From positions 1 to 44,382 of the IMG/VR virus record IMGVR_UViG_2740892015_000011: DNA of 44,382 nucleotides; one strand, given 5' to 3'. Position 1 is the first letter of the stretch. Every line of letters starts with the position of its first letter. This document shows positions 1 to 42,540 of the stretch, piece after piece. This stretch comes from a virus (Duplodnaviria; Heunggongvirae; Uroviricota; Caudoviricetes). A program made the translations under genes and the position numbers. The notes beneath the pieces are model-generated. The model was not told the DNA's origin, ran no database searches, and was given only the letters and a program-made list of their open reading frames with translations.

Positions 1-13
1 GGTTTGGGAGAAG
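1..13. repeat. Left recombination (crossover) site, half-site at window edge: GGTTTGGGAGAAG
   Basis: Exact 13-nt identity to the reverse complement of 1803..1815; the window appears to begin at the centre of the site. Confidence 0.5.
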
Positions 14-465
14 GTTCGGCATTACCCGTTGGTGTGCCTGTTCCGTGGCCTTTAGCCACTCCACCAACAGGATGGCTGAAATGTAACGGCGCTCCATTTG
101 CAGCTGAAAATTATCCGAAGCTGGCACTGGTTTACCCCGGTCTTGTGCTGCCAGATCTGCGGGGTGAGTTTATTCGTGGCTGGGATGATGGGCGTGGAGT
201 GGACAGTGGGCGAGCGTTATTGAGTGCTCAGAGCGATACGCTGCAAAATATTACAGGTAGCTTTTTTGATATGACCACGGGGACAAATAATAATACTTTC
301 GGCGCATTTACCTCTTCAATAGTGCAACCAAATCTCACACCAATTGCGATAGGTGGTACATATAAACAGGCGAATTATTATTTTGATGCATCACTTGTTG
401 CCAGAACATCAACGGAAACACGTGCGCGAAATATTGCATTTAACTTTATCGTGAGGGCTGCATAA
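4..465 (+). CDS. Alternate (currently unexpressed) tail-fibre C-terminal variable domain; 5' partial, continues from the crossover site
   Basis: Tail-collar-like motif PVPWPLATPPTGWLKCNG; reading frame runs through the crossover half-site at 1..13, so inversion would fuse it to the constant N-terminus of 1482..2099. Start in the ORF track is a TTG. Confidence 0.6.
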   Translation: MGEGSALPVGVPVPWPLATPPTGWLKCNGAPFAAENYPKLALVYPGLVLPDLRGEFIRGWDDGRGVDSGRALLSAQSDTLQNITGSFFDMTTGTNNNTFGAFTSSIVQPNLTPIAIGGTYKQANYYFDASLVARTSTETRARNIAFNFIVRAA

Positions 466-1067
466 TGGATAACGCTGTATTAAATAGCGAGCTTATTGCC
501 ACGAAGGCGGGGGATATTACCGTCTATAGCTATGATGGTGAAACTCGGGAATATATTTCCACTTCAAATGAATATCTTGCCGTTGGTGTTGGTATCCCGG
601 CATATTCCTGTCTGGATGAACCTGGTATACATAAGGCTGGTTATGCAATCTGCCGTTCGGCAGATTTAAACTCATGGGAATATGTGCCAGACCATCGCGG
701 TGAAATCGTCTATAACACCGAAACGGGAGACGCCAAAGAAATCACAGCTCTGGGTGATTACCCCGAAAATACAACCACTATCGCCCCGTTAACGCCATAC
801 GATAAATGGGATGGTGAGAAATGGGTGACGGATACTGAGGCACAGCATAGTGCCGCAGTAGACGCAGCAGAAGCACAGCGCCAGTCACTGATTGATGCAG
901 CAATGGCTTCCATTAGTCTGATTCAACTGAAATTACAGGCCGGGCGGAAACTGACGCAGGCAGAAACAACCCGGCTTAACGCTGTGCTGGATTACATTGA
1001 CGCGGTGACGGCAACAGATACCAGCACCGCGCCGGATGTCATCTGGCCTGAACTGCCGGAGGAGTAG
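465..1067 (+). CDS. Tail fibre assembly protein (partner of the alternate fibre domain)
   Basis: 200 aa, directly follows a fibre C-terminus; C-terminal ...DAVTATDTSTAPDVIWPELP resembles the C-terminus of the convergent assembly gene (...ELVDTSSAPDIEWPTPP). Same size and arrangement as e14 TfaE. Confidence 0.7.
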   Translation: MDNAVLNSELIATKAGDITVYSYDGETREYISTSNEYLAVGVGIPAYSCLDEPGIHKAGYAICRSADLNSWEYVPDHRGEIVYNTETGDAKEITALGDYPENTTTIAPLTPYDKWDGEKWVTDTEAQHSAAVDAAEAQRQSLIDAAMASISLIQLKLQAGRKLTQAETTRLNAVLDYIDAVTATDTSTAPDVIWPELPEE

Positions 1068-1479
1068 GCCATTCAATATCTGGTGCACTGGAAGTATCGA
1101 CCAGCTCCAGTGCGTCCAGATAATCCAGCCACAAATTATATTGCGCCAGTTCCTCACCTTTCAGACGACCAATAGCCGCTTTACCAGCCCATTGTCTACT
1201 GTTCATATAATCGTTGGCCTGATTAATCAATTGCTGCTTTTTAGTTTCGGCTGATGCAATTTGTTCTTCACGTGTTGGCGGTGGAACATCTGCCCATGCT
1301 GGCATTCCATCGTCTCCGGTAATTCTGTACTTACCGTCAGGCGGCGTATCATGGAAATATTCCCTGAAAATAGCTTCGTCTATATCCACGCCTTTACCTT
1401 CGGGCCATTGGCCTTTTGCAGCGTAAACAGACTGGAGGGCATAAGGGTACGCCAGATTATCAACATACAAATATTTCAT
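1039..1479 (-). CDS. Tail fibre assembly protein (expressed orientation)
   Basis: 146 aa, immediately downstream of the fibre gene 1482..2099; shares a C-terminal motif with 465..1067; the two genes converge and overlap by 29 nt. Confidence 0.7.
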   Translation of the reverse strand: MKYLYVDNLAYPYALQSVYAAKGQWPEGKGVDIDEAIFREYFHDTPPDGKYRITGDDGMPAWADVPPPTREEQIASAETKKQQLINQANDYMNSRQWAGKAAIGRLKGEELAQYNLWLDYLDALELVDTSSAPDIEWPTPPAVQAR

Positions 1480-1481
1480 AA

Positions 1482-2099
1482 TTAACGCCCTTTCGCGTAG
1501 AAGGCTCCACCTTCAAAGCCATAGTTACAATGAGCAACGAAACCTGTTTTCGTCCAGTTAGTTGCGCCCCACATATTCCCACCACCAAAACCGCCGTCAT
1601 ATACAATCACTACGTCTGGCTCCTGCGTAAAAGGAATGGTGAAAGTCACATTTGTAGATACCGCCGCGGCGTTATTCGGGAAATTAATTCTTCCCCACTG
1701 TTCAATTGAACCATCAGGCAATTTTTGCCAGCCAGATCCTGATGAATAAGCTGACATATCAGGTATCTGATTTTCCCCTGTTCCCACATTCCGTTTTGCC
1801 GCTTCTCCCAAACCAAGGTTTGTGAGAGCCGTAGAAATCGCCGCTGCTCCATCTGATTTGATATCGGCAAATGGGTTTGCACGGCTCAGTGTGAGTTTTT
1901 GAATGGCTTTTAAAACCTGAGTCATATCGTTAATGTCGAGCGCCAATCCTGCTGACTCTACGATATGCGCTAACTCTTCCTGCATGGCGTTAAACGCTGC
2001 TGCCCGCAGCCTCGTTGCGGCAATACCACCAGCAACACTTCCATCAGTATATTTGCCATCCTGCGTTGCAGTGGCTTCGACTTGCCCGATTCGGAGCAT
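1482..2099 (-). CDS. Short side tail fibre protein (constant N-terminus plus invertible C-terminal receptor-binding part)
   Basis: 205 aa, Gly/Ala-rich; contains the crossover site at about codon 95; position after the baseplate genes matches e14 StfP. Confidence 0.6.
   Translation of the reverse strand: MLRIGQVEATATQDGKYTDGSVAGGIAATRLRAAAFNAMQEELAHIVESAGLALDINDMTQVLKAIQKLTLSRANPFADIKSDGAAAISTALTNLGLGEAAKRNVGTGENQIPDMSAYSSGSGWQKLPDGSIEQWGRINFPNNAAAVSTNVTFTIPFTQEPDVVIVYDGGFGGGNMWGATNWTKTGFVAHCNYGFEGGAFYAKGR
1804..1829. repeat. Right recombination (crossover) site TTCTCCCAAACCAAGGTTTGTGAGAG
   Basis: 26-bp imperfect palindrome with an AAACC..GGTTT core resembling hix/gix/cix sites; lies inside the tail-fibre gene 1482..2099, about 95 codons from its start, where it encodes LTNLGLGE. 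Confidence 0.6.
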
Positions 2100-2150
2100 A
2101 GTTAATCCTCACTTAGTGTTAAGCGATAAAATCAGAGGGGGAAATATCAG

Positions 2151-2744
2151 TTATGAATAATTGAAAATGATGTTCAGATGGGATGGGGCAATTTTGTTGA
2201 TTGAACACTCCAGTTGTTTATTGCCCCACGATGCGAGCTGATCTCCGCAGTAGGACGCGCCAGCAAGCGAATACTTGATCGTTGTTTGTGGCGCATTTAT
2301 CCGCCAGGTAAATGGCCACTCGTCACCGTTAAGCGCATCACCGCATACTGACATGCCACTCATAGCGGGCCTGAACTGTGTGATAGTGATGGTATAACCA
2401 AGAGCTGCAGCCACCCGGATGTAATAATCGCGGTTCAGGCCGCCGGTGCTGATTAACTTTGCCACCACGGCGCGCTGGCGATCGCTGACGCCACCGGATT
2501 CACCAATCGCACAATCATCTGGTAACCCCAGAGAGCTTTCCCATTCTGACAACATTACCGTCGCTGTAGGGGGAAAAGCACCAGTAATCAGGCTTTGCGC
2601 ATCGTTGTCAGAACGCTGAAACGCGCTGCCCAGTGCCCGTAATACCGCAGCCTGTACCGTTCTTTGCGACCGGGGCCACGCCCTGCCCGTCGGTAGCAGC
2701 GCACCAAGCGCACCGGCATAATCATTTTTTGAAAAGAGGCTCAT
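2151..2744 (-). CDS. Phage tail protein, Mu gp48 / P2 gpI-like (YmfQ-like)
   Basis: 197 aa, immediately downstream of the J-like baseplate gene and upstream of the fibre; family assigned from gene order and size. Confidence 0.5.
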   Translation of the reverse strand: MSLFSKNDYAGALGALLPTGRAWPRSQRTVQAAVLRALGSAFQRSDNDAQSLITGAFPPTATVMLSEWESSLGLPDDCAIGESGGVSDRQRAVVAKLISTGGLNRDYYIRVAAALGYTITITQFRPAMSGMSVCGDALNGDEWPFTWRINAPQTTIKYSLAGASYCGDQLASWGNKQLECSINKIAPSHLNIIFNYS

Positions 2745-3883
2745 ACAAAATTCACCCCGCCAAGCACCGGAATTTCGCCAACAGCAAAGGTGATATTGGC
2801 CGTCGGAGAGTTAAGAATATAGCCCGTCGTGCCGCTAACACCGCCGATACTCCCGTTAATATCAGAGAGGTAAACTTTCCCAGAACCATCAGGGTTAGCT
2901 TCATCAAAAAACAGCGCCGTCAGCGCGTCTTTTATCCCCTGAACTGTGGTGCTGTCGGCATTTTTGATCCCAGAGATTTCAATATTGATGACTTTCTTGA
3001 TCGGGGAACATACGAAAACAATGGCAGTGTCTGTCTGCTGCGGATAGATGTGGTCGGCGACAGCGAGCTGGTCTCCGGTGGCTTTAACAGCCCCCCAGTC
3101 CTCAAGTTGGGATATTCCGTCGGTACCGACCGGAAACCCACCATTGTCATTCCGATCACACATGATATACACGCCAACGGTCCCGGCCCCGTTCAGACGC
3201 CGCTTTACCCACGCGCGGGTGACGCCCGAAACCTCAAGCGCCCATTTTTTATAATCGGCGTCGCTTCCACCCTGAGGCGGATTCTGCCATGCCAGCAAGC
3301 CACGACTGCGAAAATCCTCTTCCGTTTCAATATCGGCTCCGCCGGTCGCAGCGGACAGTAACGTTACCTGTGGATCCACGCCAGCAATATTCGCGTCCAG
3401 GGTCATTATGGTCCCGGCATCAGCGTTACCGCGCGCGCCTCCACCCGTTACATCACTGGTAATATCCGGCAGTATGGCCGTCACCGCGACGATACCAAAT
3501 CCATCTGCCTGAATTTTAAGATCTGCATCCGTCCGGTACTGGTATCCGTCCCCGCGGTTAATGATCGAGCCAACAGGGATAATACAGTCAACACTGCCAC
3601 TAGCCTGTACCGCAGGCGACTTCGCCGCTGCAGCTGGTTTTCTGAATACCTGCTTAAGGGCCATCCACCCGGCGAGATACTCATCGGTAGAGGTAAACGG
3701 GTTTGTCTGCAGGGCAATATAGTCAAGGTAGGCGTAATGCAGATGCCCCATCCCCGCATCCATGTCAGCCAGTACCTTCAGGTTCGCGAAGCGCAGGAGC
3801 GCACCAACATCCTCAAGCTCCGCCTGCATAAATTTCCGGTTTCCGTCGCGGAGTTCGCTCAGCGTCGGTCGTTTAAACGGCAT
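2741..3883 (-). CDS. Baseplate J-like protein (Mu gp47-like)
   Basis: ORF track gives 2741..4021; start moved to the internal Met (MPFKRPTLSELRDG...) at 3883, which abuts the stop of the upstream gene at 3885. Confidence 0.65.
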   Translation of the reverse strand: MPFKRPTLSELRDGNRKFMQAELEDVGALLRFANLKVLADMDAGMGHLHYAYLDYIALQTNPFTSTDEYLAGWMALKQVFRKPAAAAKSPAVQASGSVDCIIPVGSIINRGDGYQYRTDADLKIQADGFGIVAVTAILPDITSDVTGGGARGNADAGTIMTLDANIAGVDPQVTLLSAATGGADIETEEDFRSRGLLAWQNPPQGGSDADYKKWALEVSGVTRAWVKRRLNGAGTVGVYIMCDRNDNGGFPVGTDGISQLEDWGAVKATGDQLAVADHIYPQQTDTAIVFVCSPIKKVINIEISGIKNADSTTVQGIKDALTALFFDEANPDGSGKVYLSDINGSIGGVSGTTGYILNSPTANITFAVGEIPVLGGVNFV

Positions 3884-3884
3884 A

Positions 3885-4322
3885 TTAACGTTGCTCCCAT
3901 ATCCAGTAAAACCTGAATTCCTGCCAGTCCTTCCCCGGTGCCTGATAGCGGATAATGAGATTGAGCCGGTCAGGCAGGACGATCCTTGCAACAGGAATAA
4001 CCTCGCTGACAACGCCATCAACCTTTAACCAGTTGAGCGCTTCACTCGAGTATTCCTCCGCTTTTTTTGCTACATCCGGGGTCAGTTTTTTCCGCCGTAG
4101 CAGCCACAGCCGGGATCCCAGTTGGGATTCCTCCCCGGAATCCCCCCACCAGCCGCGGCGATCGCTATCCTCATAATCATCGTCAGCGCGCGCCAGCCTG
4201 TCGGTAAACAGGCTGTCCAGTATTGCAGTCTGTAAATCATTCCCCGTGGTGAGTTCACCCAGCCCTTTCTGCCAGTCAGCAAACATCTCATCCACATTCC
4301 AGAATGAAGCGATGTCACTCAT
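3885..4322 (-). CDS. Baseplate protein, Mu gp46-like (gpW/gp25-like)
   Basis: 145 aa acidic protein between the V-like and J-like genes; ATGA-type start/stop overlaps typical of a tail operon. Confidence 0.55.
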   Translation of the reverse strand: MSDIASFWNVDEMFADWQKGLGELTTGNDLQTAILDSLFTDRLARADDDYEDSDRRGWWGDSGEESQLGSRLWLLRRKKLTPDVAKKAEEYSSEALNWLKVDGVVSEVIPVARIVLPDRLNLIIRYQAPGKDWQEFRFYWIWEQR

Positions 4323-4903
4323 GTCACCTGATCCTCTGTTTTTTGGCTGCGGATATTGTCATTGCCACTCTGGGCATTTTTAACCACATGATCATGGTCA
4401 TTATGTGCATCCCGCAGCTCTTTCAGTGTTCGGGTATTGGTTTCACAGTTATCAACAATGTCACCCGTGCACCTCAGGATCGGGGTATTTGCAAGGATCC
4501 CCTGGCTGGCATTGATGGTCACGTTAGTGGCGTTATTGACCTCAACATTCTGGCCCTTTGCATCCAGGAAGATCCCCTTCTCCGTCAGGAGAATATTAAG
4601 GCCCCACTGGTTATACATGACCGTTTCGCCCGCTTTCAGGCCTGTATGACGGAACCCCTGATGGTTGGACGCAATTACCACCGCGCTGGAACGATCACCG
4701 CCAATAAAAGCCAGAACCACGTCAGTCCCTGACGGCAGGCCGGATGAAAAGCCAAATTCTGCCATCCGCGGAGCGCTGGCCACCTCCAGCGGAGTCTGGT
4801 ACTGGATAGACTGCACCACCCCACCATCTTTCATAGCCGTGATCCGGCCAATCCCCAGCATGCCGGCGATCCTGGTCGCTGCATGTTTAAATAGTTGCTT
4901 CAT
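4319..4903 (-). CDS. Baseplate assembly protein V-like / spike (Mu gp45-like)
   Basis: 194 aa; size and position between hub and gp46-like genes. Confidence 0.55.
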   Translation of the reverse strand: MKQLFKHAATRIAGMLGIGRITAMKDGGVVQSIQYQTPLEVASAPRMAEFGFSSGLPSGTDVVLAFIGGDRSSAVVIASNHQGFRHTGLKAGETVMYNQWGLNILLTEKGIFLDAKGQNVEVNNATNVTINASQGILANTPILRCTGDIVDNCETNTRTLKELRDAHNDHDHVVKNAQSGNDNIRSQKTEDQVT

Positions 4904-5985
4904 GTATTGAATCCCGCCAGGTTCTGGTAGAAGGCATATGGCTGAACGGAGAATGCTTCAGGCGGCATCAGCGTCATGCGTGCATGGGTGCCGTAGTCAT
5001 CGCGCATATAGGTGACTTCTGCCAGTAGCAATTCAGTCTTCGGCAACCGTAAGGTGGGAAGATCAACGGGGATCAATGTGTTTGGTTCCCACAGTTTCCC
5101 GTCTTTATCCCGCCAGGAATCGATGGTTACCGAGAGCTGTTTTGAACGTCCGTACCGCCGGTTCATTTCCCAGTCGATCGCACTTTGTGCCTGTTGAGTA
5201 GCCATCAGGGTACTTTCCACAATCGATATATGTTTTCGGTACCGCATGCGGGCGGCCTCCGGATCTCTCGCCGTTGCCAGAGTCACAGCGTCATAGGCCG
5301 TATCAGGCGAATACCCTGCAATTGGAGAAACGCTCATTGATACACCGACATAATCTGAAAACCTGTCAGCCATCGATTTGCGGTAGTATGCCTGCTCGAC
5401 ATTTACCCCTTCGGCTATCCCACTTGCCGCACGACGTGTTCCCACCCGGGTCAGTAACAGGTTTCCATCGGGCTGATCGTAGTAAAGCAGAGCAGACCAT
5501 CTGGCCACCCGATCGATGACTTCTTGCGGAGACTCACCCCAGTTCAGAGTGAACTGGGGTACCTTCACAAGTTCATCAACATCCGTGGTTACGGTGATGC
5601 CGTAGTAGGATGCCAGGCGAGAAGCAATTTCAAGCGCATTACTGGCATTGATGACGTTGTTAGGCCACTCGGCTGAGCAATCCACCAGGTCCTGACATTT
5701 GCTCCTGCCCGTGGCGCGGACCTCATGGCGGGAGCGCGATAGTGCGGGTTCCCAGTCATCAACATATCCCGTCAGTGTCAGATCATCTCCGATACGAACT
5801 TCACAAGACATTCCCTCTTCAACGAGTTGACGATCTTCGTTGCCAGGGAAGTAATCCATTAGCCCAAGATCGAAATCAGAGGGAAAACGCTCAATACCCC
5901 GCGTTACCCGGACAGAATCCCACCCCTCGATGATTTTGCCGTCGACCGTCAAAGAAACAACATCCAGATCGCTGTCTGCATTCAT
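4900..5985 (-). CDS. Tail/baseplate hub protein (Mu gp44 / P2 gpD-like)
   Basis: 361 aa; follows the N-like gene; overlapping stops and starts. Confidence 0.5.
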   Translation of the reverse strand: MNADSDLDVVSLTVDGKIIEGWDSVRVTRGIERFPSDFDLGLMDYFPGNEDRQLVEEGMSCEVRIGDDLTLTGYVDDWEPALSRSRHEVRATGRSKCQDLVDCSAEWPNNVINASNALEIASRLASYYGITVTTDVDELVKVPQFTLNWGESPQEVIDRVARWSALLYYDQPDGNLLLTRVGTRRAASGIAEGVNVEQAYYRKSMADRFSDYVGVSMSVSPIAGYSPDTAYDAVTLATARDPEAARMRYRKHISIVESTLMATQQAQSAIDWEMNRRYGRSKQLSVTIDSWRDKDGKLWEPNTLIPVDLPTLRLPKTELLLAEVTYMRDDYGTHARMTLMPPEAFSVQPYAFYQNLAGFNT

Positions 5986-7388
5986 TGCCTCAGTACCTTC
6001 ATGGTTGTCGGCATAAACGCCGGATGCGGTACGCGCGCTTCCTGTACCAGTTCATCTGCACGGGTGGCATCCTGGTATAATCGGTTTGCCAGCGTCAGCG
6101 CCGGAAGCGGCTGAGCGGTAGTAACCTGCAGAAGCTCGCTCAGACCAGAAGCACGCTCACTCATCGTAGAAAGGAATGCCGATCTGACGGCGAGAAGCGC
6201 GTTATACATATCATCGTCCGCGCGGTCTCCAGCCAGAACCAGCGCCGTATCAAGTTGCACAGAAACTCGTTGAGTTAACTCTTCTGCCTCGTCTGTACTG
6301 GCTGGTCTGGAGTCCGCAGCGGCACTGGTCATGGCACCAGTACATAGCACAACAATCAGCGTGTTCATGGTCGCCGAAATCGCTTTGCTGCTGTCGGACT
6401 GCTGGTACTCCGTGCTGATTGAATTAGCCAGTTTTTCCAGCGCTGTGATTCGGTCATTAACGCTGCCGGCGCTGTTAAGAATTGCGTTTACCACGTCGGC
6501 GACGCCCTGGACAAACTCATCAGGTGTGTTGGAGCTGCTAAGCTGGCTCGACCTGTCGGTAACATTTTTCCGGTCCATTACCGACTGGGCTGTTACCTTG
6601 TCAGCCAGTGCTCTCTCATCATCCACATCAGCAACTGACGATTTGCCAGCAACAGCAGAGGAACTACCGCCCACAGAGCCTTTACTGTAACGTCCGTACC
6701 GGGTATTCCCGAACGTGGAGTTCAGGACATTGCTGAGATTCGTGACCTGACTGATGGTGCTGTCAACCATGTTAGTCCAGAACGTGACCGTGCCTCTGAT
6801 GGTGTTTATAGCCTGTGTGACACCGCGGATTTCACTCTTAACTCTGGCAATCGTGCTCAGCACAGCAGTGCTGACCAGTTTCAGATAGTTGGTTTTCACC
6901 GTGGCGCCTGCAACGGTACTGCCCGTGACAGCAAACACTTTAAGCCCTGATTCAATTGCCATCAGGGTAAATTCAAATACTCGCCCGTTCTCCATCGAAC
7001 CGGAAATACGCAAACCATTCTCAGGGATGGAAACCGTTAATTCGCCCAGTGTCGGATGGACAAGCGTACCGCTACCTTTTTGTTCACAGGCTTCAATCAG
7101 TGACTGGCGCTGCGTGATAGCATCGCCGCCGCCGTAAACCTGGCTGTTCTGGATCAAGAAACCGCGAATAACAAATCGCCGTGTTGCCCGCCCGATATCC
7201 TCTATCCAGGCTGTATCACGGTAGGGATATTCATGTACCGCCTGGCGTCGGCCGTGGCTCCCTTCCTCAGCAACAATTGCAAATGGCACACCTCTGAATG
7301 AGCTGGGCCGTAACTGCCCCTGCCAGTCATCGCTGGTATCTCCCCCCAAAAGAGAAGTTATTGCGTCCTGGATAATTGACGGCATCAC
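5982..7388 (-). CDS. Mu gp43 (N)-like DNA circularisation / tail protein
   Basis: 468 aa; first gene after the tape measure in a Mu-like order. Confidence 0.5.
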   Translation of the reverse strand: MMPSIIQDAITSLLGGDTSDDWQGQLRPSSFRGVPFAIVAEEGSHGRRQAVHEYPYRDTAWIEDIGRATRRFVIRGFLIQNSQVYGGGDAITQRQSLIEACEQKGSGTLVHPTLGELTVSIPENGLRISGSMENGRVFEFTLMAIESGLKVFAVTGSTVAGATVKTNYLKLVSTAVLSTIARVKSEIRGVTQAINTIRGTVTFWTNMVDSTISQVTNLSNVLNSTFGNTRYGRYSKGSVGGSSSAVAGKSSVADVDDERALADKVTAQSVMDRKNVTDRSSQLSSSNTPDEFVQGVADVVNAILNSAGSVNDRITALEKLANSISTEYQQSDSSKAISATMNTLIVVLCTGAMTSAAADSRPASTDEAEELTQRVSVQLDTALVLAGDRADDDMYNALLAVRSAFLSTMSERASGLSELLQVTTAQPLPALTLANRLYQDATRADELVQEARVPHPAFMPTTMKVLRQ

Positions 7389-7396
7389 GCCTCCGG

Positions 7397-7426
7397 AAAT
7401 AAAAAAACCGCCATGTCGGCGGTTTA
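7397..7426 (-). terminator. Rho-independent terminator (minus strand)
   Basis: Minus strand reads AACCGCC-GACAT-GGCGGTT followed by TTTTTTT; sits just after the small ORF and before the gp43-like start. Confidence 0.55.
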
Positions 7427-7448
7427 CATATGCACTGAAATGACTTAT

Positions 7449-7697
7449 CTATTTATCGCTGGATCCATTACGGTCAAGAGATTCGGCGATCCTGTAAAGA
7501 TGCTCAGTCGCCTTGAATGAGTTCATTAGGAACTCATAAAGCACACGTAAAAGCAATGCACTTACCACCGATATCGTAATCGCCGTGAAATTCATTGAGA
7601 CAACAGAAAAAACGAGGAAAATGCCAATTACCAGGTAAACAAGCGCAAAAACCTTTGGAGTCTAAATGGCTTTTGCTCCAAAAACTTTTTCATTCAT
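7449..7697 (-). pseudogene. Small membrane-protein ORF interrupted by an in-frame amber codon (moron candidate)
   Basis: RBS TAAGGAAGAAG then ATG at 7697; frame reads MNEKVFGAKAI-TAG(7664..7662)-TPKVFALVYLVIGIFLVFSVVSMNFTAITISVVSALLLRVLYEFLMNSFK...; internal ATG at 7595 would give a 48-aa product. Too short for the ORF track. Confidence 0.4.
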
Positions 7698-7728
7698 AAC
7701 TTCTTCCTTAACGAAATGACGACAGTGA

Positions 7729-9657
7729 TCAGTAATTCATGGCCGTTGTTATTCTGCCATTATTTTCCGCATTATAGGTTTTTCGCTCACCCTTATCATT
7801 AACCATTGTGATTTCGAGCTTAAGTGGTTGTTCTGACATTGCCTCTTTAAGAGACTTAGCCAGATTGTCGCCGAGTACACTTTCATCACTTTTCTTACCC
7901 GTATCACTCAGAATGATGGATTCCCGATTTCTGTTCTGCGAGCCTGAGAGAATATCAGTTTCATCACTCGGGTTACTAAGAGTGCTGGAGTCACGATTTC
8001 CAGTTTGCGAACCTGAGATAATATCATATCGCTGTTGAGCCAGAACTTCCGGGCTACGTAAACCCTTCCACCGATCGTCAATGATGGCCGTCCGGACAGA
8101 ATCGCTCAGTTCATTTTCGGTATACGGCTGTGCTCCGCTTTCATGTTTAATCATTGCTGCCATCAGTGTTTTTAACACATCAGGATCGTGGAGATTAATA
8201 CGCTGCTGCGCTCCAAACCCAGTACTTTTTGATACGGAATCAATATATGCACGAGTATTATTCTCTGATTGCGGAGCATAGGTATGAATAATCCCATCCA
8301 GAGTATTATTCCCCCTGTCACCATACAACATCAGCTGTCTCGCCATTGCAGCTCTTCCGTCGGCATCATTCGCAAAGGTAGAAAATCCGCCATTTTTACC
8401 CGTTGCGTTTGCTGCAGCCCTCAAATTACCGGGATTATTATTTCTGAAGCCAATTGCGTTATTCCTTGTTTCCCCGTAAGGAACATTGCCGCGTGCAACG
8501 TTGGATTGTGGCTGGCTGATAGCGGATAAGTCATTCTGCAATTGAATCGCAGAATCGGTCGCGCGGTAATTCGCATCGTACCGCTTTCTTACAGCATCAG
8601 TCATGAAACCCGCGTCAACCTGCCCACGTTCACTGCGGGGTAAGCTGTTATAAAGTTCCTTATCGTTCTGAATGCGCCGTAGTTTCTCAGCATCATTGCT
8701 GTTGATAAAACCGAGAGCATGAGACAGCCCAGTAAAATCACCATTAGTGAACAGATCGGTAACACCTTCAAGGCCGTCTTTGACTGAACCATCCGAAAGA
8801 ATGGTCTTAAGTGCCTTGTTTTTTGAACGTTGCCACAGACCATCCCAGGATGCGCTGAGCTCATTCATAGTGCCGTTCACTTCACTCAATTGCTGATTTA
8901 GTGCCGGATCCACAGTCAGACCAAATTCATCCGATTTCGCCAGCAGCTTTTTCATGCGCTCACCGTCACGCATTAGCGCCAGCAATTCGGGCGTCAGCCC
9001 AAGTGCATCAGCGGCGGACTTCTGCTGTTCAGGTCGCAAGGTTGGAAAAATTTTTGCGATAGACTCCAGTGTTTTAAGGGTATTTACTGAACCATCGCTG
9101 TTTTTTTGGATTTGAGCACCAATTTGCGCCATCGCTGCCATAACCCCCTCGTTTTTACCACTGGCAGCCTCATTGAATGCTTTGAAAATACCTTCTATTG
9201 ATGCATTAGCGCTCTCGCTGTCTGCCCCAAGAATACGCATTGCCCCGGAAAGTCGGGTAAAATCGTCAACGCGCATTCCCGCATTTTTTGCCGAGACATC
9301 AAGATTATAGGCCTGACGGGATGCCTCCCGAAATCCATAAGCGACCTGTTTCAGTCCGTAGCCGGCAGCACCGGCTAACCCCAGCGCCCCCATCTTCCCC
9401 GTGAGCTCCCCCACCATTTTCAGTGGGGGAACCATGTCGCCAATAAACTGCACGTTATCCCGCGCGCTCTTCGACATATTCTCGAGGCGAGAAATAAAAC
9501 CGCTCAGTCCGTCGGCTGTTTCCTGACCGCCTAACTTGAGCCCTTCTTTAGTTTTATCTAGCTTCGGCTCCAGGTCACGGACAGCCTCATTAATGCGGTC
9601 TATAGCCTCGCTAACCTGGTCGCTGGCCACCAGCTCAAAATCAAAAGAATTACTCAT
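7729..9657 (-). CDS. Tail tape measure protein
   Basis: 642 aa, long helical Ala/Gly-rich protein after the chaperone frameshift region; C-terminal tandem peptide repeat (ISGSQTGNRDSS / LSGSQNRNRESI). Confidence 0.75.
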   Translation of the reverse strand: MSNSFDFELVASDQVSEAIDRINEAVRDLEPKLDKTKEGLKLGGQETADGLSGFISRLENMSKSARDNVQFIGDMVPPLKMVGELTGKMGALGLAGAAGYGLKQVAYGFREASRQAYNLDVSAKNAGMRVDDFTRLSGAMRILGADSESANASIEGIFKAFNEAASGKNEGVMAAMAQIGAQIQKNSDGSVNTLKTLESIAKIFPTLRPEQQKSAADALGLTPELLALMRDGERMKKLLAKSDEFGLTVDPALNQQLSEVNGTMNELSASWDGLWQRSKNKALKTILSDGSVKDGLEGVTDLFTNGDFTGLSHALGFINSNDAEKLRRIQNDKELYNSLPRSERGQVDAGFMTDAVRKRYDANYRATDSAIQLQNDLSAISQPQSNVARGNVPYGETRNNAIGFRNNNPGNLRAAANATGKNGGFSTFANDADGRAAMARQLMLYGDRGNNTLDGIIHTYAPQSENNTRAYIDSVSKSTGFGAQQRINLHDPDVLKTLMAAMIKHESGAQPYTENELSDSVRTAIIDDRWKGLRSPEVLAQQRYDIISGSQTGNRDSSTLSNPSDETDILSGSQNRNRESIILSDTGKKSDESVLGDNLAKSLKEAMSEQPLKLEITMVNDKGERKTYNAENNGRITTAMNY

Positions 9658-9820
9658 CGTCTTCAGGTTTCCTAAGCTTGTTTATCCGGGATGCCTGCGC
9701 CACCCACCATTTCAGCCGGGCGCAGGTCATTCCCCACGCCCTGTCCTCAGACCAGCGGAAATAGAAGGTGACGTCAGCGGCCATTTCCTGCCAGGTTGTC
9801 AGGGCTTCCAGGTCAAAAAA
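9650..9820 (-). other. Programmed -1 frameshift slippery site (T TTT TTG, about 9814..9820) and 54-codon extension ORF of the tail assembly chaperone
   Basis: Heptamer T_TTT_TTG lies 5 codons before the chaperone stop; the -1 frame is open for 54 codons and ends at a TAA overlapping the tape measure start (ATGAGTAA). Confidence 0.6.
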
Positions 9821-10077
9821 CTGAGCAGATACTCCTCACACTTACGGAAGTCGAGAAAATCCATCGGCTGCAGTACGCTTTCACGCGTACCGGAAACCAG
9901 CGCAATAAGCAGGCGCATCGCCGCGAGCGACGTTGACGCAGCCTGTTTCTCGTAAAACTGCTCAGCCTGGCTTAGCGTGGGTGCTTTCAGCTCCAGCTGC
10001 GTATAAGTGGTCTTCTCCGCAGCATCATCCAGCGCTACGGTTAATGGAATGGTTTTAACGCGTTCAATCTCAGCCAT
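9799..10077 (-). CDS. Tail assembly chaperone (zero-frame product)
   Basis: 92 aa between tube and tape measure genes; contains the slippery site near its 3' end. Confidence 0.6.
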   Translation of the reverse strand: MAEIERVKTIPLTVALDDAAEKTTYTQLELKAPTLSQAEQFYEKQAASTSLAAMRLLIALVSGTRESVLQPMDFLDFRKCEEYLLSFLTWKP

Positions 10078-10078
10078 C

Positions 10079-10450
10079 TTAGTTCTCCGTTACGTCGCGG
10101 CCTTCCCAGCGAACATCAAATACTGCATCTTCGCTTTCCACTTCCTGGACGTTGACCGTCCAGAGTGAACGGCCAATGATAGTTTTCCCGTTAGCCAGCT
10201 CGGCGATCACGTTGACGTTCGTCTGCTGGTTAAAGCCCTGCACATTCGTTCCGCCACTGTCACGCAGTCGGGCAGAAATGTATGGCGCCACAGGTTTTTC
10301 CTTATATCCGTGCACACCATCCATCCCTGTCAGGGTGGTACGGTTTACGGTGGCAGCCTGGTATTTAAACGAGCCCTCCACCATTACCGTCACACCGTTA
10401 ACAGTGACATAGGCGGTTCCCGCCAGGCGGTTAGTAGTATCACCTGCCAT
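10079..10450 (-). CDS. Tail tube protein (Mu gpM-like)
   Basis: 123 aa, immediately downstream of the sheath gene. Confidence 0.65.
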   Translation of the reverse strand: MAGDTTNRLAGTAYVTVNGVTVMVEGSFKYQAATVNRTTLTGMDGVHGYKEKPVAPYISARLRDSGGTNVQGFNQQTNVNVIAELANGKTIIGRSLWTVNVQEVESEDAVFDVRWEGRDVTEN

Positions 10451-10453
10451 CGT

Positions 10454-11956
10454 TTAAGCTCCTGTTGATTCAGCCCGAGTGCGGAACTGATTGAGCAGCG
10501 CGAAAATGCGCAACTGGTTCATGAGGGTTCCCGGCCACAGCACATCGACGCGGTTCGGATTTTTGGCGTTCTGCTCGACGATGATATTTTTTGCGAATGC
10601 CTCCGCATCCTGCGCATAACCGTTCCATACCAGAGTCTGGTACTCGGCAATCTGATCGGCCTTGATAATGTTTGGCGTGACGATCGCCGCGCCAGGTGCA
10701 AATCGGGTTCCATCCGCAGCAAGCTTCATACGGCCAAACTTGCTGGTCACCGCTGTGCGCAGGTAGCGGGTCACAAACATCAGGCTGAACAGCGTCTCCA
10801 CTTCCAGATAACTGTCATCTGCATCGCCATAGCTGTTTTTCTGGTAGGTGGTGATCAGGTTTTCAATGCGCACCGTGCCATCGTCATCGACCGTAAATGT
10901 CGAAATGCCGCTGTACAGCAGATTGTTACGCTCGGTCAGCTCAAAGCGATCCTGCAGTTCTGGCGCAAGCACCCCCTGAACAGCGAGCGACTGTAGCGGG
11001 CGGCCGGGGTCATTACGCAGACTCACCGCAGCTGCGCCGGTGTAAGCTGCAGACCATGCCCAGGAAGGGGACGGCGATTTATTTACGCCCAGCAGGGTCT
11101 CATGCTGGTTATTGCGCAGCTCACCTTTGGTACCGAGCTGGGCGTAAGTCCCGGTGGTGGTACCAAAGGAATGGCCATAAAGCTGCTTGTCCCATGCCCA
11201 GCGACCGCCAGTGTCTGACAGGAACTCCTTCATCACATTCAACGAGGTTGTATCGTCGTAAGGGTTGATGATGAAATCGAATGTCCGATCCTGCAGGTTT
11301 GCCAGCGCGCCGGTAATATCCGGAGCCCCGACTCCGTTAGACATAGCAGTAATCGTCAGTTCCAGGCCTGCAGGTGTGGACTCGCCTCCAGGTAAGCCGA
11401 GGAAGTTCAGGCGAATGTCGATCCCATTACCCGTAGCACCAAGATTCTTCGCGGTCAGGGTTACGGTATCCGTAGTCGCACTGGCGGTTACAGGTAGCGT
11501 GGTTTTTGCGTTAATCGCCGCGGCCAGAGAGGTGGCGATCGCTGCCACCGTATCTGTTGCTACAACGGTCAACTGAATGCGCTCACCAGCAATATAAAGG
11601 GAGATCACTCCGGTTGCCGTCGGTGCGCTGCTCACTTTAATGGTGCCGGTTGCAGCCACCATGGAATCGGAGTCTTCCTCCAGCGGCAGGATCCAGACTT
11701 CGGCTGCGGTATCATTTTTCTGATACGCCGCCATCATGGCCTGCAGAATTCCCCCTTTTCCTGTCAGCTCACCGACGGTATCCGAAGAGGAAACTCGCTG
11801 CGGAATACCAGGGAGGGTTGAGCCGGTACTGAGCATCCCACCGATAAGCAGGGTGCGCTGCGTGGCAGTGGCGTTATTCGCCATTGAGTTATCAAACTCA
11901 ACGAAGAAAAGCCCTACCCGCAGGTTATCGGGAACACGAGCGAAAGGTACGGTCAT
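10454..11956 (-). CDS. Contractile tail sheath protein
   Basis: 500 aa; size and position upstream of the tube gene in a myovirus-type tail module. Confidence 0.75.
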   Translation of the reverse strand: MTVPFARVPDNLRVGLFFVEFDNSMANNATATQRTLLIGGMLSTGSTLPGIPQRVSSSDTVGELTGKGGILQAMMAAYQKNDTAAEVWILPLEEDSDSMVAATGTIKVSSAPTATGVISLYIAGERIQLTVVATDTVAAIATSLAAAINAKTTLPVTASATTDTVTLTAKNLGATGNGIDIRLNFLGLPGGESTPAGLELTITAMSNGVGAPDITGALANLQDRTFDFIINPYDDTTSLNVMKEFLSDTGGRWAWDKQLYGHSFGTTTGTYAQLGTKGELRNNQHETLLGVNKSPSPSWAWSAAYTGAAAVSLRNDPGRPLQSLAVQGVLAPELQDRFELTERNNLLYSGISTFTVDDDGTVRIENLITTYQKNSYGDADDSYLEVETLFSLMFVTRYLRTAVTSKFGRMKLAADGTRFAPGAAIVTPNIIKADQIAEYQTLVWNGYAQDAEAFAKNIIVEQNAKNPNRVDVLWPGTLMNQLRIFALLNQFRTRAESTGA

Positions 11957-12150
11957 TCATTTTCTCCCGCTTTTTTAGGTAATGATTGTTTCTCTGGCGC
12001 GCCCTCATCCTTTTTAGAGAGGATCACGTCCCCATCGCTCAGACGGCGACGCCAGAAAATATTGTCAGGTACTTCAGCACCCTCTTTAGGCAATGGGATG
12101 CCCTTGACGGGGCAGCGAACGCTGAGCCCGTTGTTCGGCTTAACAAACAT
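11953..12150 (-). CDS. Small phage protein preceding the sheath gene
   Basis: 65 aa, start/stop overlap with neighbours. Confidence 0.35.
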   Translation of the reverse strand: MFVKPNNGLSVRCPVKGIPLPKEGAEVPDNIFWRRRLSDGDVILSKKDEGAPEKQSLPKKAGENE

Positions 12151-24154: not shown

Positions 24155-25207
24155 TTATTCCCCTGCCAACGCCCGTATTTCCCCCAACGTCTGATTAAAC
24201 CTTTCCTCTTCGAGTTCAACGCCAATAGCCTGGCGGCCAAGTTCCAGCGCGACTTTCACGGTCGAACCGGACCCCATAAAGAAATCAGCCACCACATCAC
24301 CAGGCTTACTGCTGGCGTTGATGATCTGCCGCAACATGTCAGCGGGTTTTTCGCATGGGTGTTTACCTGGGTAAAACTGAACGGGTTTATGTGTCCAGAC
24401 GTCGGTATAAGGAACGGATACGGAAACAGAGAAATGCCGCCGAAGTGATTTGTACTCTTCGAGCAGCTCTGAATATTTGCGATTCAACGAATGCCACAGA
24501 GCCACCAGCTGGTGGTGTGGTGTTGCCAGTTCGCCGTTCTGGTGTTTTTCGATGGCTACCTGCGTGAAAAGGGACTGAAGATTCCGGTAGTCTGATTCAT
24601 TCGGTAATTGCCACTGGCTACCGCTGAACCAGTGAGACACCATGTTCTTCTTTCCAGTCGCATCGGCTATTTGTTTTGAGGTTATGCCAAGCGCTTCACG
24701 TGCATCCCGGAAATAAGAAATTAGGGGAGTCATTACATGCTGCTTCAGCTCGCTTCCCTTCTCAGCGTACCCGTCGCTCTTTGGTTTATACGGCCCCTGG
24801 TAATGCTCAGCGAACAGGATGCGCTCTGTTGCAGGGAAGTAAGAGCGCAGGCTCTCTTTATTACAGCCATTCCAGCGGCCCGACGGTTTAGCCCAGATGA
24901 TGTGGTTCAGGACGTTGAACCGCTCACGCATCATGATCTCAATGTCTGCCGCCAGACGGTGACCTGAGAAAAGATAAAGACTGCCGGCAGGTTTAAGCAC
25001 TCGCCAGAATTGTGCGAGGCACATATCAAGCCAGCGAAGATAATCCTCATCCCCTTTCCATTGATTGTCCCAGCCGTTGGGTTTCACTTTGAAGTAAGGC
25101 GGATCCGTGACTATCAGGTCAATGGAGTTATCAGGGAGAGTTGCGATGTATTGCAGGCTATCAGCGTTGACTAACTCAACACTGTTTATAATTACAGTAT
25201 TTTTCAT
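24155..25207 (-). CDS. DNA methyltransferase, amino-methyltransferase beta class (N6-adenine or N4-cytosine), orphan
   Basis: DPPY motif near the N-terminus (LIVTDPPYF) and motif I near the C-terminus (DFFMGSGST); no adjacent restriction gene. Confidence 0.75.
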   Translation of the reverse strand: MKNTVIINSVELVNADSLQYIATLPDNSIDLIVTDPPYFKVKPNGWDNQWKGDEDYLRWLDMCLAQFWRVLKPAGSLYLFSGHRLAADIEIMMRERFNVLNHIIWAKPSGRWNGCNKESLRSYFPATERILFAEHYQGPYKPKSDGYAEKGSELKQHVMTPLISYFRDAREALGITSKQIADATGKKNMVSHWFSGSQWQLPNESDYRNLQSLFTQVAIEKHQNGELATPHHQLVALWHSLNRKYSELLEEYKSLRRHFSVSVSVPYTDVWTHKPVQFYPGKHPCEKPADMLRQIINASSKPGDVVADFFMGSGSTVKVALELGRQAIGVELEEERFNQTLGEIRALAGE

Positions 25208-29524: not shown

Positions 29525-31462
29525 TCAGGCGGCTGCACCCGCCTTTTGATTTGCACATAATTCAGGAAGATTTGCTTCTACCAGCGCACGAGCGAACGGC
29601 GGCGGTACTGCGTTACCACAGCGCGCTACCTGCTTGTCTTTGGCGTAACGATTGCCGCGATAGTCCTGATCGATAACGTAGCCGTCAGGGAAGCCCTGCG
29701 CCTTATAAAGCTCATGCGGTTGCAGCATGCGCATTCCGATATCGACGATCTGGTACTTAACCCCCTCGATCGTCACCAGCCATTCATCCTCGCTATCACC
29801 GCAGTAGGTTTCGAGGAATGTCCGGACCTCGCCAACGTGCTGGCCACCAGCGGTAATAGTCGGCATAGGTGTATCCATGGTCTGACCGTCGCGGCAGGTT
29901 CCGCGTAGCTTCACCAGGTGCGACGCAACTACCGCGTGGTGATCAACAGTAGTGACTGAGTGGGCAGGCTCATCCATACCAACACCCGGCCCCGTGTAAT
30001 TCCCACCATAGTGCTTCGCCAGGAACGCGCTCACCGTTGCAAACTTATTACCACCAGCAGTGACCGTGCCGAGCGGGTTATTCAGTTGAATAACACGCGG
30101 TTCTTGCCCTGGGCGTTCGCCGTACCCCATCTGGATCAGTGTTGGAGTTACCAGCTGCGACTTACCGCCACCACCAGCAGTAATCGTCGCGCTCGGTTCG
30201 TCAGCCCTGTGCCCAACACTGGCGCCAAACTGGCGGGCGATGACCGGAGCAACAACGCACGCGCGGGACTGCTTGAGGATTGTATGAGCGGGTTTATCCA
30301 GCGGGCGCGGCTTTGCCTGGTACTCACTGCCGCCATTGCCAGCCAGGAACGGTGTCAGGGCGGCCTCAACTACGCCAAGCGCATGCCCATTCCCGCCTGG
30401 GCGCGCCGACGTACCAGCGGTGACAGTTGGAACCGGCTCGGTCACTGGCTGCCCGGTGGCCCCGGTGCGGAATTTAGTAAGATGCGGTACCGCCAGCGCG
30501 TAGCCATGCTTTTTAGTGATGGTCTGCAATGGCTCTAACAACGATTGCCCGCGGAAACAGTCATAACCTCCTTTCGTCGTGGTGTGGTTACACTTCACGA
30601 TGAAAGGTGATGCACTTTCGATAACAAAGCGCTGGATGCCGCGCGCGATACGTTTGAGCGTATTTTCCGCCAGCGGCTTTTTGCGGTCGAAGATGGAACG
30701 GGCCGGGATGTTCCAGTCAATGCACTCCGCCGCGGTACGCCATGGCGCCAGCTTGCCGCTTTGTACTTCCAGTGATTTTGGATCCCCATGAGTCGCTTCA
30801 GGCCAATGAATCTTGCGGCCGTCACAACGCATGACCATGAAGAAACGCTTTCTGATCGTCGGCGCGCCGTAGTCACAAGCGCGCAGCTCACGATAATCGA
30901 CCTCATAGCCAAGCCCGGCGATCAGCTGTTGCGCCTGCTGGCCGTGCGGCTCAATGGCAAGAAATTCACAAACCTCAGCCAGTGCTGGGTGATTCGCCGC
31001 GATACCAGTCGACAGCATGCCGACAAATGCCTCAAATGTTTCACCAGCACGCTCAGGATCCGGGCGTAATTCTTCATCCAGCAGCGGGCCCCATGTCTTA
31101 AATTCTTCGACGTTCTCCAGCATCATGACGCGGGGACGTACTGACAGCGCCCAGCGCAGGACAATCCACGCCAGCCCGCGAATCTCTTTCTTAACCGGCT
31201 TAGCGCCCTTCGCTTTGGAAAAGTGGCGGCAGTCAGGGCTAAACCAGGCCAGACCAACAGGTTTACCGCTGGTGGCTGCACTTGGGTCAACGTCAAACAC
31301 CGACTCGCAATAATGCAGCGTGTCCGGGTGATTCGTCTTATGCATCGCAATAGCGTTTTCGTCGTGGTTGATAGCGATATCCACGCTACGCCCGATCGCC
31401 AGTTCAATGCCGGTACTCGCGCCACCACCACCAGCAAAGTTATCAACGATAATTTCACGCAT
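29525..31462 (-). CDS. DNA (cytosine-5) methyltransferase, large phage-type
   Basis: Motif I IVDNFAGGGGASTG, catalytic FSPDCRHFSKAKG (Pro-Cys), ENV motif MMLENVEEF; probable start MREIIVDNF... (ORF track extends to 31516). Confidence 0.8.
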   Translation of the reverse strand: MREIIVDNFAGGGGASTGIELAIGRSVDIAINHDENAIAMHKTNHPDTLHYCESVFDVDPSAATSGKPVGLAWFSPDCRHFSKAKGAKPVKKEIRGLAWIVLRWALSVRPRVMMLENVEEFKTWGPLLDEELRPDPERAGETFEAFVGMLSTGIAANHPALAEVCEFLAIEPHGQQAQQLIAGLGYEVDYRELRACDYGAPTIRKRFFMVMRCDGRKIHWPEATHGDPKSLEVQSGKLAPWRTAAECIDWNIPARSIFDRKKPLAENTLKRIARGIQRFVIESASPFIVKCNHTTTKGGYDCFRGQSLLEPLQTITKKHGYALAVPHLTKFRTGATGQPVTEPVPTVTAGTSARPGGNGHALGVVEAALTPFLAGNGGSEYQAKPRPLDKPAHTILKQSRACVVAPVIARQFGASVGHRADEPSATITAGGGGKSQLVTPTLIQMGYGERPGQEPRVIQLNNPLGTVTAGGNKFATVSAFLAKHYGGNYTGPGVGMDEPAHSVTTVDHHAVVASHLVKLRGTCRDGQTMDTPMPTITAGGQHVGEVRTFLETYCGDSEDEWLVTIEGVKYQIVDIGMRMLQPHELYKAQGFPDGYVIDQDYRGNRYAKDKQVARCGNAVPPPFARALVEANLPELCANQKAGAAA

Positions 31463-32789
31463 TGACGGCCCCCTGCATGCTGTTGAAGAGACCACCAGCG
31501 GTCGTGATAATTTCACTCGTCGGCATACGTTCGAGCCACAGCTGGTTGATATTGGCTTTCAGCTTGTTCTGTTGTGAAACAGGTAGAGCGTCAGCACCTT
31601 CAATCTGGTTAAACACCAGGCCAACCTCAAGAGGCCAAACGCGCGATTCGTTTAACGCCTTGTCCTTTGATTCCTGCGTCTCACGTACATGAGCGCGGAT
31701 CCCCCGAATATTTGACCATTTGGCTTTATCCAGGCTTTCCATGGTCGCGATGAATTCACTGTGGTTGATGCCGTATTCTTTCGCAGATTCAACGGCAACC
31801 GTGCGAAGCCGCTCTGACATGTCTTGTTTCACGTCATCGCTATCAAAGGGCAATGTTTCCAGCCATGCATTAACACCCACCAGGATGCTCTCGCTGATCA
31901 GCTTTTTCGCTCTATCGATCGTCAGCGGTGAAACATTGGTAAATTCAGGGTTTTCCAGAGAGTCGGCAGCCCAGGTATGACCAAACTTTGACTCGCTGAA
32001 GGTGTACTCATCTTTCTCGCCGAACGCCGCGACAACACAGGCCCAAGCTTCTACACCACTGGTTTCCAGAATGGCTTTTTGGGTTAATGGCAGTTCTGCC
32101 TCTGATTTCTCCGGCACTACCTCAGCGTCCAGCTCCGGCGCCGCATCAGTTTGCGTTCTTCCCACGGCAAACTGGGCCAGCGACATCGAAGCACGGCCTT
32201 TGGCCTCCAGGTCGGTGCGGTTGATGTAACTGAAACGTTCACCCCGCCATGTTTTGTCGAAGACCACGATAGCGCCAGCAAAAAATGCGCTGGTTGGCTG
32301 CTGCTTTTCGTCTTTCGGCACGAACCATGTAGGAAGATCGAAACCAATTCGGCCACGGATGAATGTGACGTGATCTGCTTCTTCCGGCCACCACGTCTCA
32401 CTCGTCGCAGACTTAATGAGAAAAACGTACCGCCCCCCCTTTTCTCGCATTGCCATAGCGTGGTTAATGATGTGGGTCATTCCGGTAATGGCCTGCTTGT
32501 CGTGATACTGAGAGCGGCTGTAAGGCGGGTTGCCAAACCCGGCACCACCGAGTTCTGCCAGACGCTCAGACCAATCCTGTGTCAGGGCATTATCTTCAGC
32601 CGTGTACCATGCTGGGCACTTCGCGTTGCTGTCGTCGGCAAAAAGGTCCAACACCAGAGGGCCGAACATCGCATTGATACCCCAAAACAACAGATCCGGA
32701 GTGCGCCATTGATCGCCGACCTCTTTCAACTCGTGGGCTGGTCTTGAACGCAGTTCAACCAGCGCACGGCAGTATTTGCTTTCAATCAT
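31455..32789 (-). CDS. Phage Dam-like N6-adenine methyltransferase domain fused to a ~260-aa C-terminal domain of unknown function
   Basis: N-terminal WRTPDLLFWG, DLFADD and GFGNPPYSRS (NPPY) motifs; remainder unrecognised. Confidence 0.6.
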   Translation of the reverse strand: MIESKYCRALVELRSRPAHELKEVGDQWRTPDLLFWGINAMFGPLVLDLFADDSNAKCPAWYTAEDNALTQDWSERLAELGGAGFGNPPYSRSQYHDKQAITGMTHIINHAMAMREKGGRYVFLIKSATSETWWPEEADHVTFIRGRIGFDLPTWFVPKDEKQQPTSAFFAGAIVVFDKTWRGERFSYINRTDLEAKGRASMSLAQFAVGRTQTDAAPELDAEVVPEKSEAELPLTQKAILETSGVEAWACVVAAFGEKDEYTFSESKFGHTWAADSLENPEFTNVSPLTIDRAKKLISESILVGVNAWLETLPFDSDDVKQDMSERLRTVAVESAKEYGINHSEFIATMESLDKAKWSNIRGIRAHVRETQESKDKALNESRVWPLEVGLVFNQIEGADALPVSQQNKLKANINQLWLERMPTSEIITTAGGLFNSMQGAVNA

Positions 32790-42421: not shown

Positions 42422-42540
42422 AAAAAGGCACCTGATGGTGCCTTGAATAAAGTCTTGAATAAGACACCCGAAGGTGCCTTAAGTGGTTCTCTTAGCAACG
42501 AACTAAGAACGCCCACGCCTCATACCCATAATCATGAGCA

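Follow-up and report, generated by a model that had tools for sequence, protein, structure and literature searches.

A probable invertible tail-fibre segment of the e14 P and Mu G kind at the left edge of a temperate phage sequence

Introduction

Does the left edge of a temperate phage sequence hold a host-range switch, and does that switch turn? The question is raised by the viral record IMGVR_UViG_2740892015_000011, whose 44,382 nucleotides (nt), analysed here in full and referred to as the window, begin inside a short inverted repeat. The other copy of the repeat lies within a leftward-reading tail-fibre gene, and a second fibre-like open reading frame (ORF) stands between the two. We conclude, with a probability of roughly 93%, that window 1–2099 belongs to a temperate myovirus-type prophage and is its invertible segment for tail-fibre (host-range) switching, comparable to the P segment of e14 and the G segment of phage Mu. 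An earlier note on this DNA had proposed such a switch, and its particulars are taken up where the results bear on them. Homologous loci are designated by L numbers, and for direct comparison we used the sequences of e14 from Escherichia coli K-12 and of the phage Mu right end.

Results

Inverted crossover sites at the ends of the segment

The first 13 nt of the window, GGTTTGGGAGAAG, recur once elsewhere in its 44,382 nt, as an exact reverse complement at 1802–1814. The earlier note had seen this repeat and was right that it is exact, but had set the second copy at 1803..1815, one nucleotide away from its true place. The 12-nt half-site TTCTCCCAAACC, searched with one mismatch allowed, is found only at 1–12 on the minus strand and 1803–1814 on the plus strand, where 0.15 occurrences would be expected by chance. 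On the right it belongs to a complete 26-bp site in which two imperfectly symmetric 12-nt arms flank a 2-bp core (Table 1). This 26-bp site is present in a single copy in the window, with 0 expected. Its identification as a hix/gix-like site inside the expressed fibre gene has stood up well: it shares the gix layout, it places the crossover at codons 91–99 of the fibre gene, and the stfP crossover site of e14, TTCTCCCAAACCAAGGTTTTCGAGAG, matches window 1803–1828 at 24 of 26 positions (2 mismatches).

On the left, the central TT of the site falls just outside the window, and the full site was read in relatives whose sequence extends further. There the complete left site is TTATAAAAAAGG TT GGTTTGGGAGAA (L017, L013 and L001) or, in relatives integrated at the transfer RNA (tRNA) gene proL, TTATCAAAAACG TT GGTTTGGGAGAA; the full repeat in relatives is TTGGTTTGGGAGAAG. 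Because L017, read leftward, gives ...TTATAAAAAAGG TT GGTTTGGGAGAAGGTTCGG..., position 1 of the window is the first base past the TT core. The outer half of the left site would be expected beyond the edge as ...TTATC/TAAAAAAC/GG, followed by TT. With the left core and outer half read in relatives, the segment has the two inverted 26-bp sites, the 12-bp half-sites and the equal 2-bp core of the Din family. The 15-mer TTGGTTTGGGAGAAG occurs exactly twice, in inverted orientation, in 26 fetched loci, e14 of K-12 included. A chance origin of the 13-nt repeat is ruled out by the site statistics and by this inverted 15-mer pair in the relatives.

Two opposed fibre ends in a common reading frame

Between the sites lie two convergent cassettes, a silent one made up of a Collar tip and its chaperone, and one in which a Gp53-like tip, with its own chaperone, is fused to the head of the fibre (Table 1; domain calls are from Pfam). 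The 205-amino-acid (aa) fibre ORF occupies 2099–1482 on the minus strand, at the end of a minus-strand Mu-type baseplate operon in which gp45, gp46, baseplate J/gp47 and gp48/YmfQ precede it, and the AA core of the crossover site falls within codon 95. The constant part of the fibre gene (Sc) is 99–100% conserved in relatives irrespective of the cassette or orientation downstream; it brings the ribosome-binding site and start codon, and its transcription comes from the baseplate operon. The Collar tip at 1–465 (Sv') has neither a start codon nor a promoter of its own inside the segment. We found the reading frames to be compatible across the sites, as the earlier note had claimed: the fibre reads ...ALTNLGLGE|AAKRN, and frame 1 of the window reads GLGE|GSALPVG.... 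Since the frame is shared at the site, inversion would yield an uninterrupted 249-aa Collar fibre. The layout is that of the Mu G and e14 P segments, with a constant 5' part outside, two opposed 3' parts with their chaperones inside, and both fusions in frame.

Table 1. Position and identity of the features at the fibre segment and at the right end of the prophage
Feature	Position	Strand	Basis or remark
Left crossover site, inner arm	1..13	.	Cut by the window edge; inner half-site GGTTTGGGAGAA at bases 1–12
Silent alternative fibre C-terminus (Sv'), 154 codons	1..465	+	Pfam Collar, E = 3.3e-12
Tail-fibre assembly chaperone of the Collar tip, TfaE-like, 200 aa	465..1067	+	Pfam Caudo_TAP, E = 1.1e-32
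Chaperone of the currently expressed tip, 146 aa	1039..1479	-	Pfam Caudo_TAP, E = 3.7e-32
Currently expressed variable fibre C-terminus (Sv), last 110 codons	1482..1814	-	Gp53-like_C, residues 126–195 of the 205-aa fibre
Right crossover site, complete	1803..1828	.	TTCTCCCAAACC AA GGTTTGTGAGAG; core AA at 1815–1816
Constant fibre N-terminal part (Sc), 95 codons, outside the segment	1815..2099	-	Start ATG at 2099
Mu gp48/YmfQ-family baseplate wedge gene, immediately preceding the fibre gene	2151..2744	-	Pfam Phage_Mu_Gp48, E = 2.1e-32
Lambda-type integrase	41234–42421		Prophage right end
Duplicate of the tRNA-Pro (proL) 3' end	43987–44071		Attachment-site (att) duplicate
3' end of the host autotransporter gene yejO	~44100–44382	-	Right end of the window

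A scan of window 1–2800 for promoters and terminators revealed no excess relative to shuffled sequence (6 promoter-like matches against 4.3 expected, and 2 terminator-like matches against 2.9), which fits expression of the segment by read-through from the baseplate operon only. Searches of NCBIfam gave the fibre and chaperone proteins no specific family name. The two chaperone genes converge with an overlap of 29 bp. Within the segment there is also a second inverted homology, an 18-nt inverted repeat (986–1003 and 1112–1129, 83% complementary), which is due to the homologous C-termini of the two chaperones (the proteins are 37% identical over 68 aa).

For annotation, the consequence is that the ORF at 4–465 should be described as a silent alternative 3' end of the fibre gene and not as a free-standing gene. 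The fibre product is 205 aa or 249 aa long depending on orientation, and predictions of host range or receptor must weigh both. In L017 (8099–8172, just left of the position that corresponds to window position 1), an ATG lies 18 nt outside the segment and in frame with the silent tip (MVIKKVGLGE...), so that gene callers annotate a free-standing 160–170-aa 'phage tail protein'. The 55-bp gap between this ATG and the divergent invertase gene must contain the invertase promoter, beside or overlapping the left site, as in Mu gin.

Both orientations among isolates

The claim that inversion swaps both the tip and the chaperone is borne out by sequences from other isolates. The predicted 249-aa fusion is on record (P0001, annotated 'phage tail protein [Escherichia coli]') with 100% identity over 100% of its length. 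The flipped arrangement was found in L025 and L026, where the order is baseplate genes, 249-aa Collar fibre, 200-aa chaperone, the 146-aa chaperone on the opposite strand, a silent 116-aa Gp53-like ORF, a 182-aa invertase gene, and host genes yciI and tonB. When L017 was compared with L025, the 1,818-bp segment was 100% identical and in the opposite orientation, with the right flank matching at 100% over 5,298 bp and the left flank at 99.75% over 3,664 bp, and the alignment blocks overlapped by exactly 15 bp at each junction. An identical but flipped segment with 15-bp overlaps at its junctions is the signature of conservative site-specific inversion within TTGGTTTGGGAGAAG. Two P2-like prophages (L012 and L006) differ in the same way, their segments being 100% identical but flipped and their flanks 100% and 99.9% identical. 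Across the contigs examined, the exact 205-aa form is found on 23 and the exact 249-aa form on 12, and comparison across isolates thus reveals the segment in both orientations.

A serine invertase gene beside the segment in relatives

The earlier note had also predicted a serine invertase gene immediately left of the window. This is supported by homologous loci and stays a prediction for the window's own record. Of 8 loci shown with the exact 205-aa fibre, 7 have a gene with Resolvase and helix-turn-helix (HTH_7) domains as the left neighbour of the segment; the exception is L020, which may be an assembly chimera. In these seven, the order is the Collar ORF, a divergent 182-aa Resolvase+HTH_7 gene, host yciI and tonB. 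L020 aside, every relative whose sequence runs on past the left site has a 182-aa or 186-aa invertase gene that starts ~70 bp past the position of window position 1 (74 bp in L017). L017 and L019 are 99.77% identical to window 1–6000 (14 mismatches). Look-ups by exact protein led to such close relatives (99.8% identical) but to no identical contig in the proL context, and a scan of IMG/VR for an exact 59-nt match turned up three other contigs, each distinct from the window's source. Invertase and segment are also adjacent in complete genomes: the proL prophages of ECONIH4 and of an ST536 strain carry, in order, tRNA-Pro, two small ORFs, a dinI-family gene, a 186-aa recombinase gene and the segment. 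An adjacent small serine recombinase (~180–195 aa, with a resolvase domain and a helix-turn-helix) marks the Din family and is present in these relatives. An invertase gene would be expected as the immediate neighbour of the window's segment whichever flank its source has, given that it is so in the locus family.

The 182-aa invertase matched the structure of Mu Gin (3UJ3) over residues 1–181 with E = 1.6e-55, retains the catalytic-serine motif YARVST, and shares 51% identity with Gin and 55% with PinE of e14. For the 186-aa invertase of the proL relatives, identity is 88% to PinE and 76% to Gin. In NCBIfam, the invertase gave sub-threshold serine-recombinase matches only. Pairs of the Fis-like motif G-N13-C spaced 48 bp apart yielded a candidate in Mu gin (centres 53 and 101); at the equivalent positions of the 182-aa invertase gene the motif is partly kept, but is too degenerate to be decisive.

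Proposed mechanism

We propose that late, leftward transcription of the minus strand from the baseplate operon enters the fibre gene, whose first 95 codons (2099–1815) are not part of the segment. The product of a small serine invertase gene just past the left edge would pair the inverted 26-bp sites (the complete one at 1803–1828 and the left one, of which 1–12 is the inner half), cut at the 2-bp AA/TT core and rotate the 1,818-bp segment. In the orientation seen in the window, the head carries the Gp53-like tip, with the 146-aa chaperone gene next; in the other, the head would carry the Collar tip, with the 200-aa TfaE-like chaperone gene next. With two orientations available, a lysogen population would release virions of two receptor specificities. 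We infer that the adjacent invertase catalyses the reaction, that the reaction may depend on Fis and an enhancer, and that the two tips would bind different receptors.

Spread of the cassette among prophages

Similarity to window 1–2400 was found in 3,124 of 5,426 complete E. coli genomes, and mostly ends at 1816–1832. In genomes that are 99.2–99.9% identical to the window over 1800–12000, the match begins at 1800–1804 and other cassette alleles take the place of the window's. At the junction, the constant region of strains with different cassette alleles is 98–99% identical to that of the window, and some such genomes carry a Collar-type tip in the expressed position. Conversely, the window cassette (99.4–99.6% identical) is also present in P2-like prophages and beside a third baseplate type at yciI. 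The 1,818-bp cassette with its crossover sites is common to at least three unrelated E. coli prophage chassis, at 99.4–100% identity, some of which lack a nearby invertase of their own. Similarity searches and draft assemblies break at 1–13 and at ~1816–1832 because the cassette is a mobile module common to these phage types. An assembly break on mixed orientations was considered as the reason why the window ends at the crossover core, but was not adopted, because the right junction is contiguous, unlike that of a 50/50 mixture.

The P2-like prophages L005–L009, L011 and L012 (segment at locus positions 5535–7352) carry the same 1,818-bp cassette, 99.4–99.6% identical to window 1–1816, fused to a P2 H-type fibre gene. 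No Resolvase gene was called within ~5.5 kb on either side of the segment in these prophages, and inversion there presumably relies on an invertase elsewhere in the genome. In a metagenome contig (L020; ENA ERZ27286901 k141_18497, locus positions 6001–9566), the cassette links the baseplate genes and the 205-aa fibre of this prophage with a 431-aa P2-type Collar fibre and P2 gpI. Either the assembly was chimeric across the shared cassette, or the contig is a true inter-prophage recombinant at the crossover sites.

Prophage context

The integrase, the duplicate of the proL 3' end and yejO at the right end (Table 1) place this copy at proL, and from the context at 41234–44382 the window is essentially the whole 44-kb prophage at that tRNA-Pro gene. 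Neither ARAGORN nor Rfam found an intact tRNA at the right end, the tRNA-like stretch there being the att duplicate of the proL 3' end. The late region at 1800–12000 is 99.9% identical to that of prophages inserted at yciI/kch (L003/L032, E. coli NCTC 13148), and over the interval compared (1800–24000) the structural gene order of the latter follows that of the window up to the portal gene. The early region, the integrase and the invertase lineage (55% identical) of prophages of this type all differ from those of the window. The comparison shows plain mosaicism, and the boundary falls at the fibre switch.

The early and regulatory region contains three DNA methyltransferase ORFs, at 24155–25207(-), 29525–31516(-) and 31455–32789(-). 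They encode an N6_N4_Mtase protein (350 aa), a 663-aa protein whose C5-cytosine methylase domain is confined to the N-terminus, and a 444-aa Dam-domain protein, with long uncharacterised stretches outside the methylase domains. At 42800–43737(-), in the interval from the integrase to the att repeat, an ImmA/IrrE-type M78 metallopeptidase (173 aa) is paired with an XRE-type HTH protein (135 aa). This pair lies outside the main immunity region, in which a CI-like S24 repressor is encoded at 34946–35572.

Discussion

Weighing the alternatives

Several points weigh against the conclusion that window 1–2099 is a working switch. The invertase gene and the outer half of the left site are both outside the window, and a simple degenerate-motif scan did not recognise a Fis-binding enhancer in the invertase gene of the relatives. 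The two orientations were seen by comparison of isolates, and different receptors for the 205-aa and 249-aa fibres, like the inducibility of the prophage, are presumed. In favour of a working switch, inversion of the e14, Mu-like and P2-like prophage segments has been measured in single cultures by sequencing and by polymerase chain reaction (PMC4272514, PMC12529663).

One alternative concerns not the inversion but its use: the chimera made in the inverted state might serve the host, besides or instead of setting the host range of the virion, if a fragment of the Collar fibre, made in the lysogen, blocked adsorption of other phages as reported for StfE2 of e14. The P segment of e14 shares the 15-bp repeat, and its inversion is reported to give a chimera that inhibits adsorption of T2 (PMC12529663); the TfaE-like chaperone and the Collar tip of the window are 91% and 51% identical to their e14 counterparts, the latter StfE. 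Against such a role, the constant part is 36% identical to StfP of e14, the segment shows no promoter-like excess, and it closes a complete-looking late operon (terminase, portal, capsid, sheath, tube and baseplate), so that a role in the virion is the simplest reading. We consider the host-side role unlikely.

A second alternative holds that the switch is a fossil, its sites and cassettes inherited but the segment locked in this prophage, either because the invertase was lost or is inactive or because a true end or rearrangement lies at the left site, with the Collar cassette never used. The window does halt exactly at the core of the left site, leaving the invertase and the outer half-site unseen, and some P2-like prophages hold the same cassette with no invertase gene within ~5.5 kb. 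However, every relative of this prophage, whichever integration site it occupies, keeps an intact invertase gene next to the segment, neither the silent ORF nor its chaperone gene is disrupted, and even the P2-like copies that lack a neighbouring invertase occur in both orientations. Moreover, such invertases work on these sites in trans (PMC12529663), a further point against a locked segment. A fossil switch is thus very improbable.

That the orientation differences reflect horizontal replacement of cassettes, or homologous recombination between prophages that share one, rather than site-specific inversion can practically be dismissed: the same 1.8-kb cassette (99.4–99.6%) has indeed been exchanged between this prophage, P2-like prophages and a third baseplate type, and near-identical constant regions (98–99% at the junction, 99.2–99.9% over 1800–12000) do carry different alleles, but in both flipped pairs (L017/L025 and L012/L006) the segments are 100% identical, the flanks 99.75–100% identical and the junctions confined to a 15-bp repeat, which is too short for efficient RecA-mediated recombination.

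We therefore retain the reading of window 1–2099 as an invertible tail-fibre segment. Because the cassette is shared and some of its chassis have no invertase of their own, one resident invertase could, acting in trans, invert fibre genes that belong to several prophages of the same host. It is a tentative and rather doubtful suggestion that such flipping across prophages, together with a host-side block of adsorption as claimed for StfE2 of e14, applies here. If it did, the switch in the window would be a node of a host-wide network of cross-prophage phase variation and defence, and not a private host-range switch.

Comparison with known invertible systems

The finding is not new. Switches of this type have been textbook material since the 1980s (Gin of Mu, Cin of P1, Pin of e14 and Hin of Salmonella), and with a mechanism known for four decades and a cassette widespread in E. 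coli, the segment described here is a routine case. The Hin/hix system of Salmonella and Cin/cix of P1 share the recombinase family and the site architecture. hixR is asymmetric, and the outer half of the left site, TTATAAAAAAGG, recalls it. Hin flips a promoter and not the 3' end of a fibre gene, and the segments of P1 and p15B are larger or have multiple sites.

P2-like E. coli prophages carry the same 1,818-bp cassette, at 99.4–100% identity and in both orientations, on P2 H-type fibre genes. They differ from the window in the long P2-type constant part (386-aa and 430-aa products), and the P2-like loci seen have no invertase gene within ~5.5 kb, whereas another P2-like prophage (L002) has one. 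Invertible fibre segments are known in P2-like prophages, for example in enteropathogenic E. coli E2348/69 (PMC4272514).

The resemblance to the G segment and Gin of Mu lies first in the arrangement, with Sc outside the segment, Sv-U and U'-Sv' opposed inside it, and the invertase gene adjacent. The upstream baseplate genes gp45–gp48 are homologous and the gp48-S neighbour order is the same. In their 12-2-12 layout and AAACC/GGTTT arms, gixL and gixR agree with the sites described here. The N-terminus of Mu S is weakly similar to Sc of the window (33% over 70 aa), which is also weakly like StfP of e14. In contrast, the Mu segment is ~3 kb long with a 504-aa fibre, while that of the window is 1.8 kb with 205-aa and 249-aa fibres; the variable tips and chaperones of Mu have no detectable similarity to those of the window; and the core is TC/GA in Mu and AA/TT here. 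Mu transposes, whereas the window phage is lambdoid in regulation and integration.

The P segment of e14 and its invertase PinE have been described previously (Plasterk & van de Putte 1985; Mehta et al. 2004, PMC331406; PMC4272514; PMC12529663). e14 is a 15-kb defective prophage at icd, whereas the window is a complete-looking 44-kb contractile-tail prophage at proL. The constant head with the expressed tip is 36% identical to StfP and the YmfQ proteins are 35% identical, and the yciI-sited relatives of the window use another invertase lineage, 55% identical to PinE. The gene order is nevertheless alike, with ymfQ/gp48, a short fibre head, a tip and chaperone facing a chaperone and tip, and then the invertase, and the segments have a similar size of ~1.8 kb. 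Identity amounts to 91% for TfaE, 51% for the StfE/Collar tip and 73% for TfaP (the last over the C-terminal 78 aa of the 146-aa chaperone). What ties the window family to the e14 P lineage in particular is the repeat TTGGTTTGGGAGAAG(G), together with a cassette homologous to TfaE/StfE that follows a ymfQ-type gene, and the published repeat of the e14 P segment is identical to the 15-bp repeat of the window family (PMC12529663).

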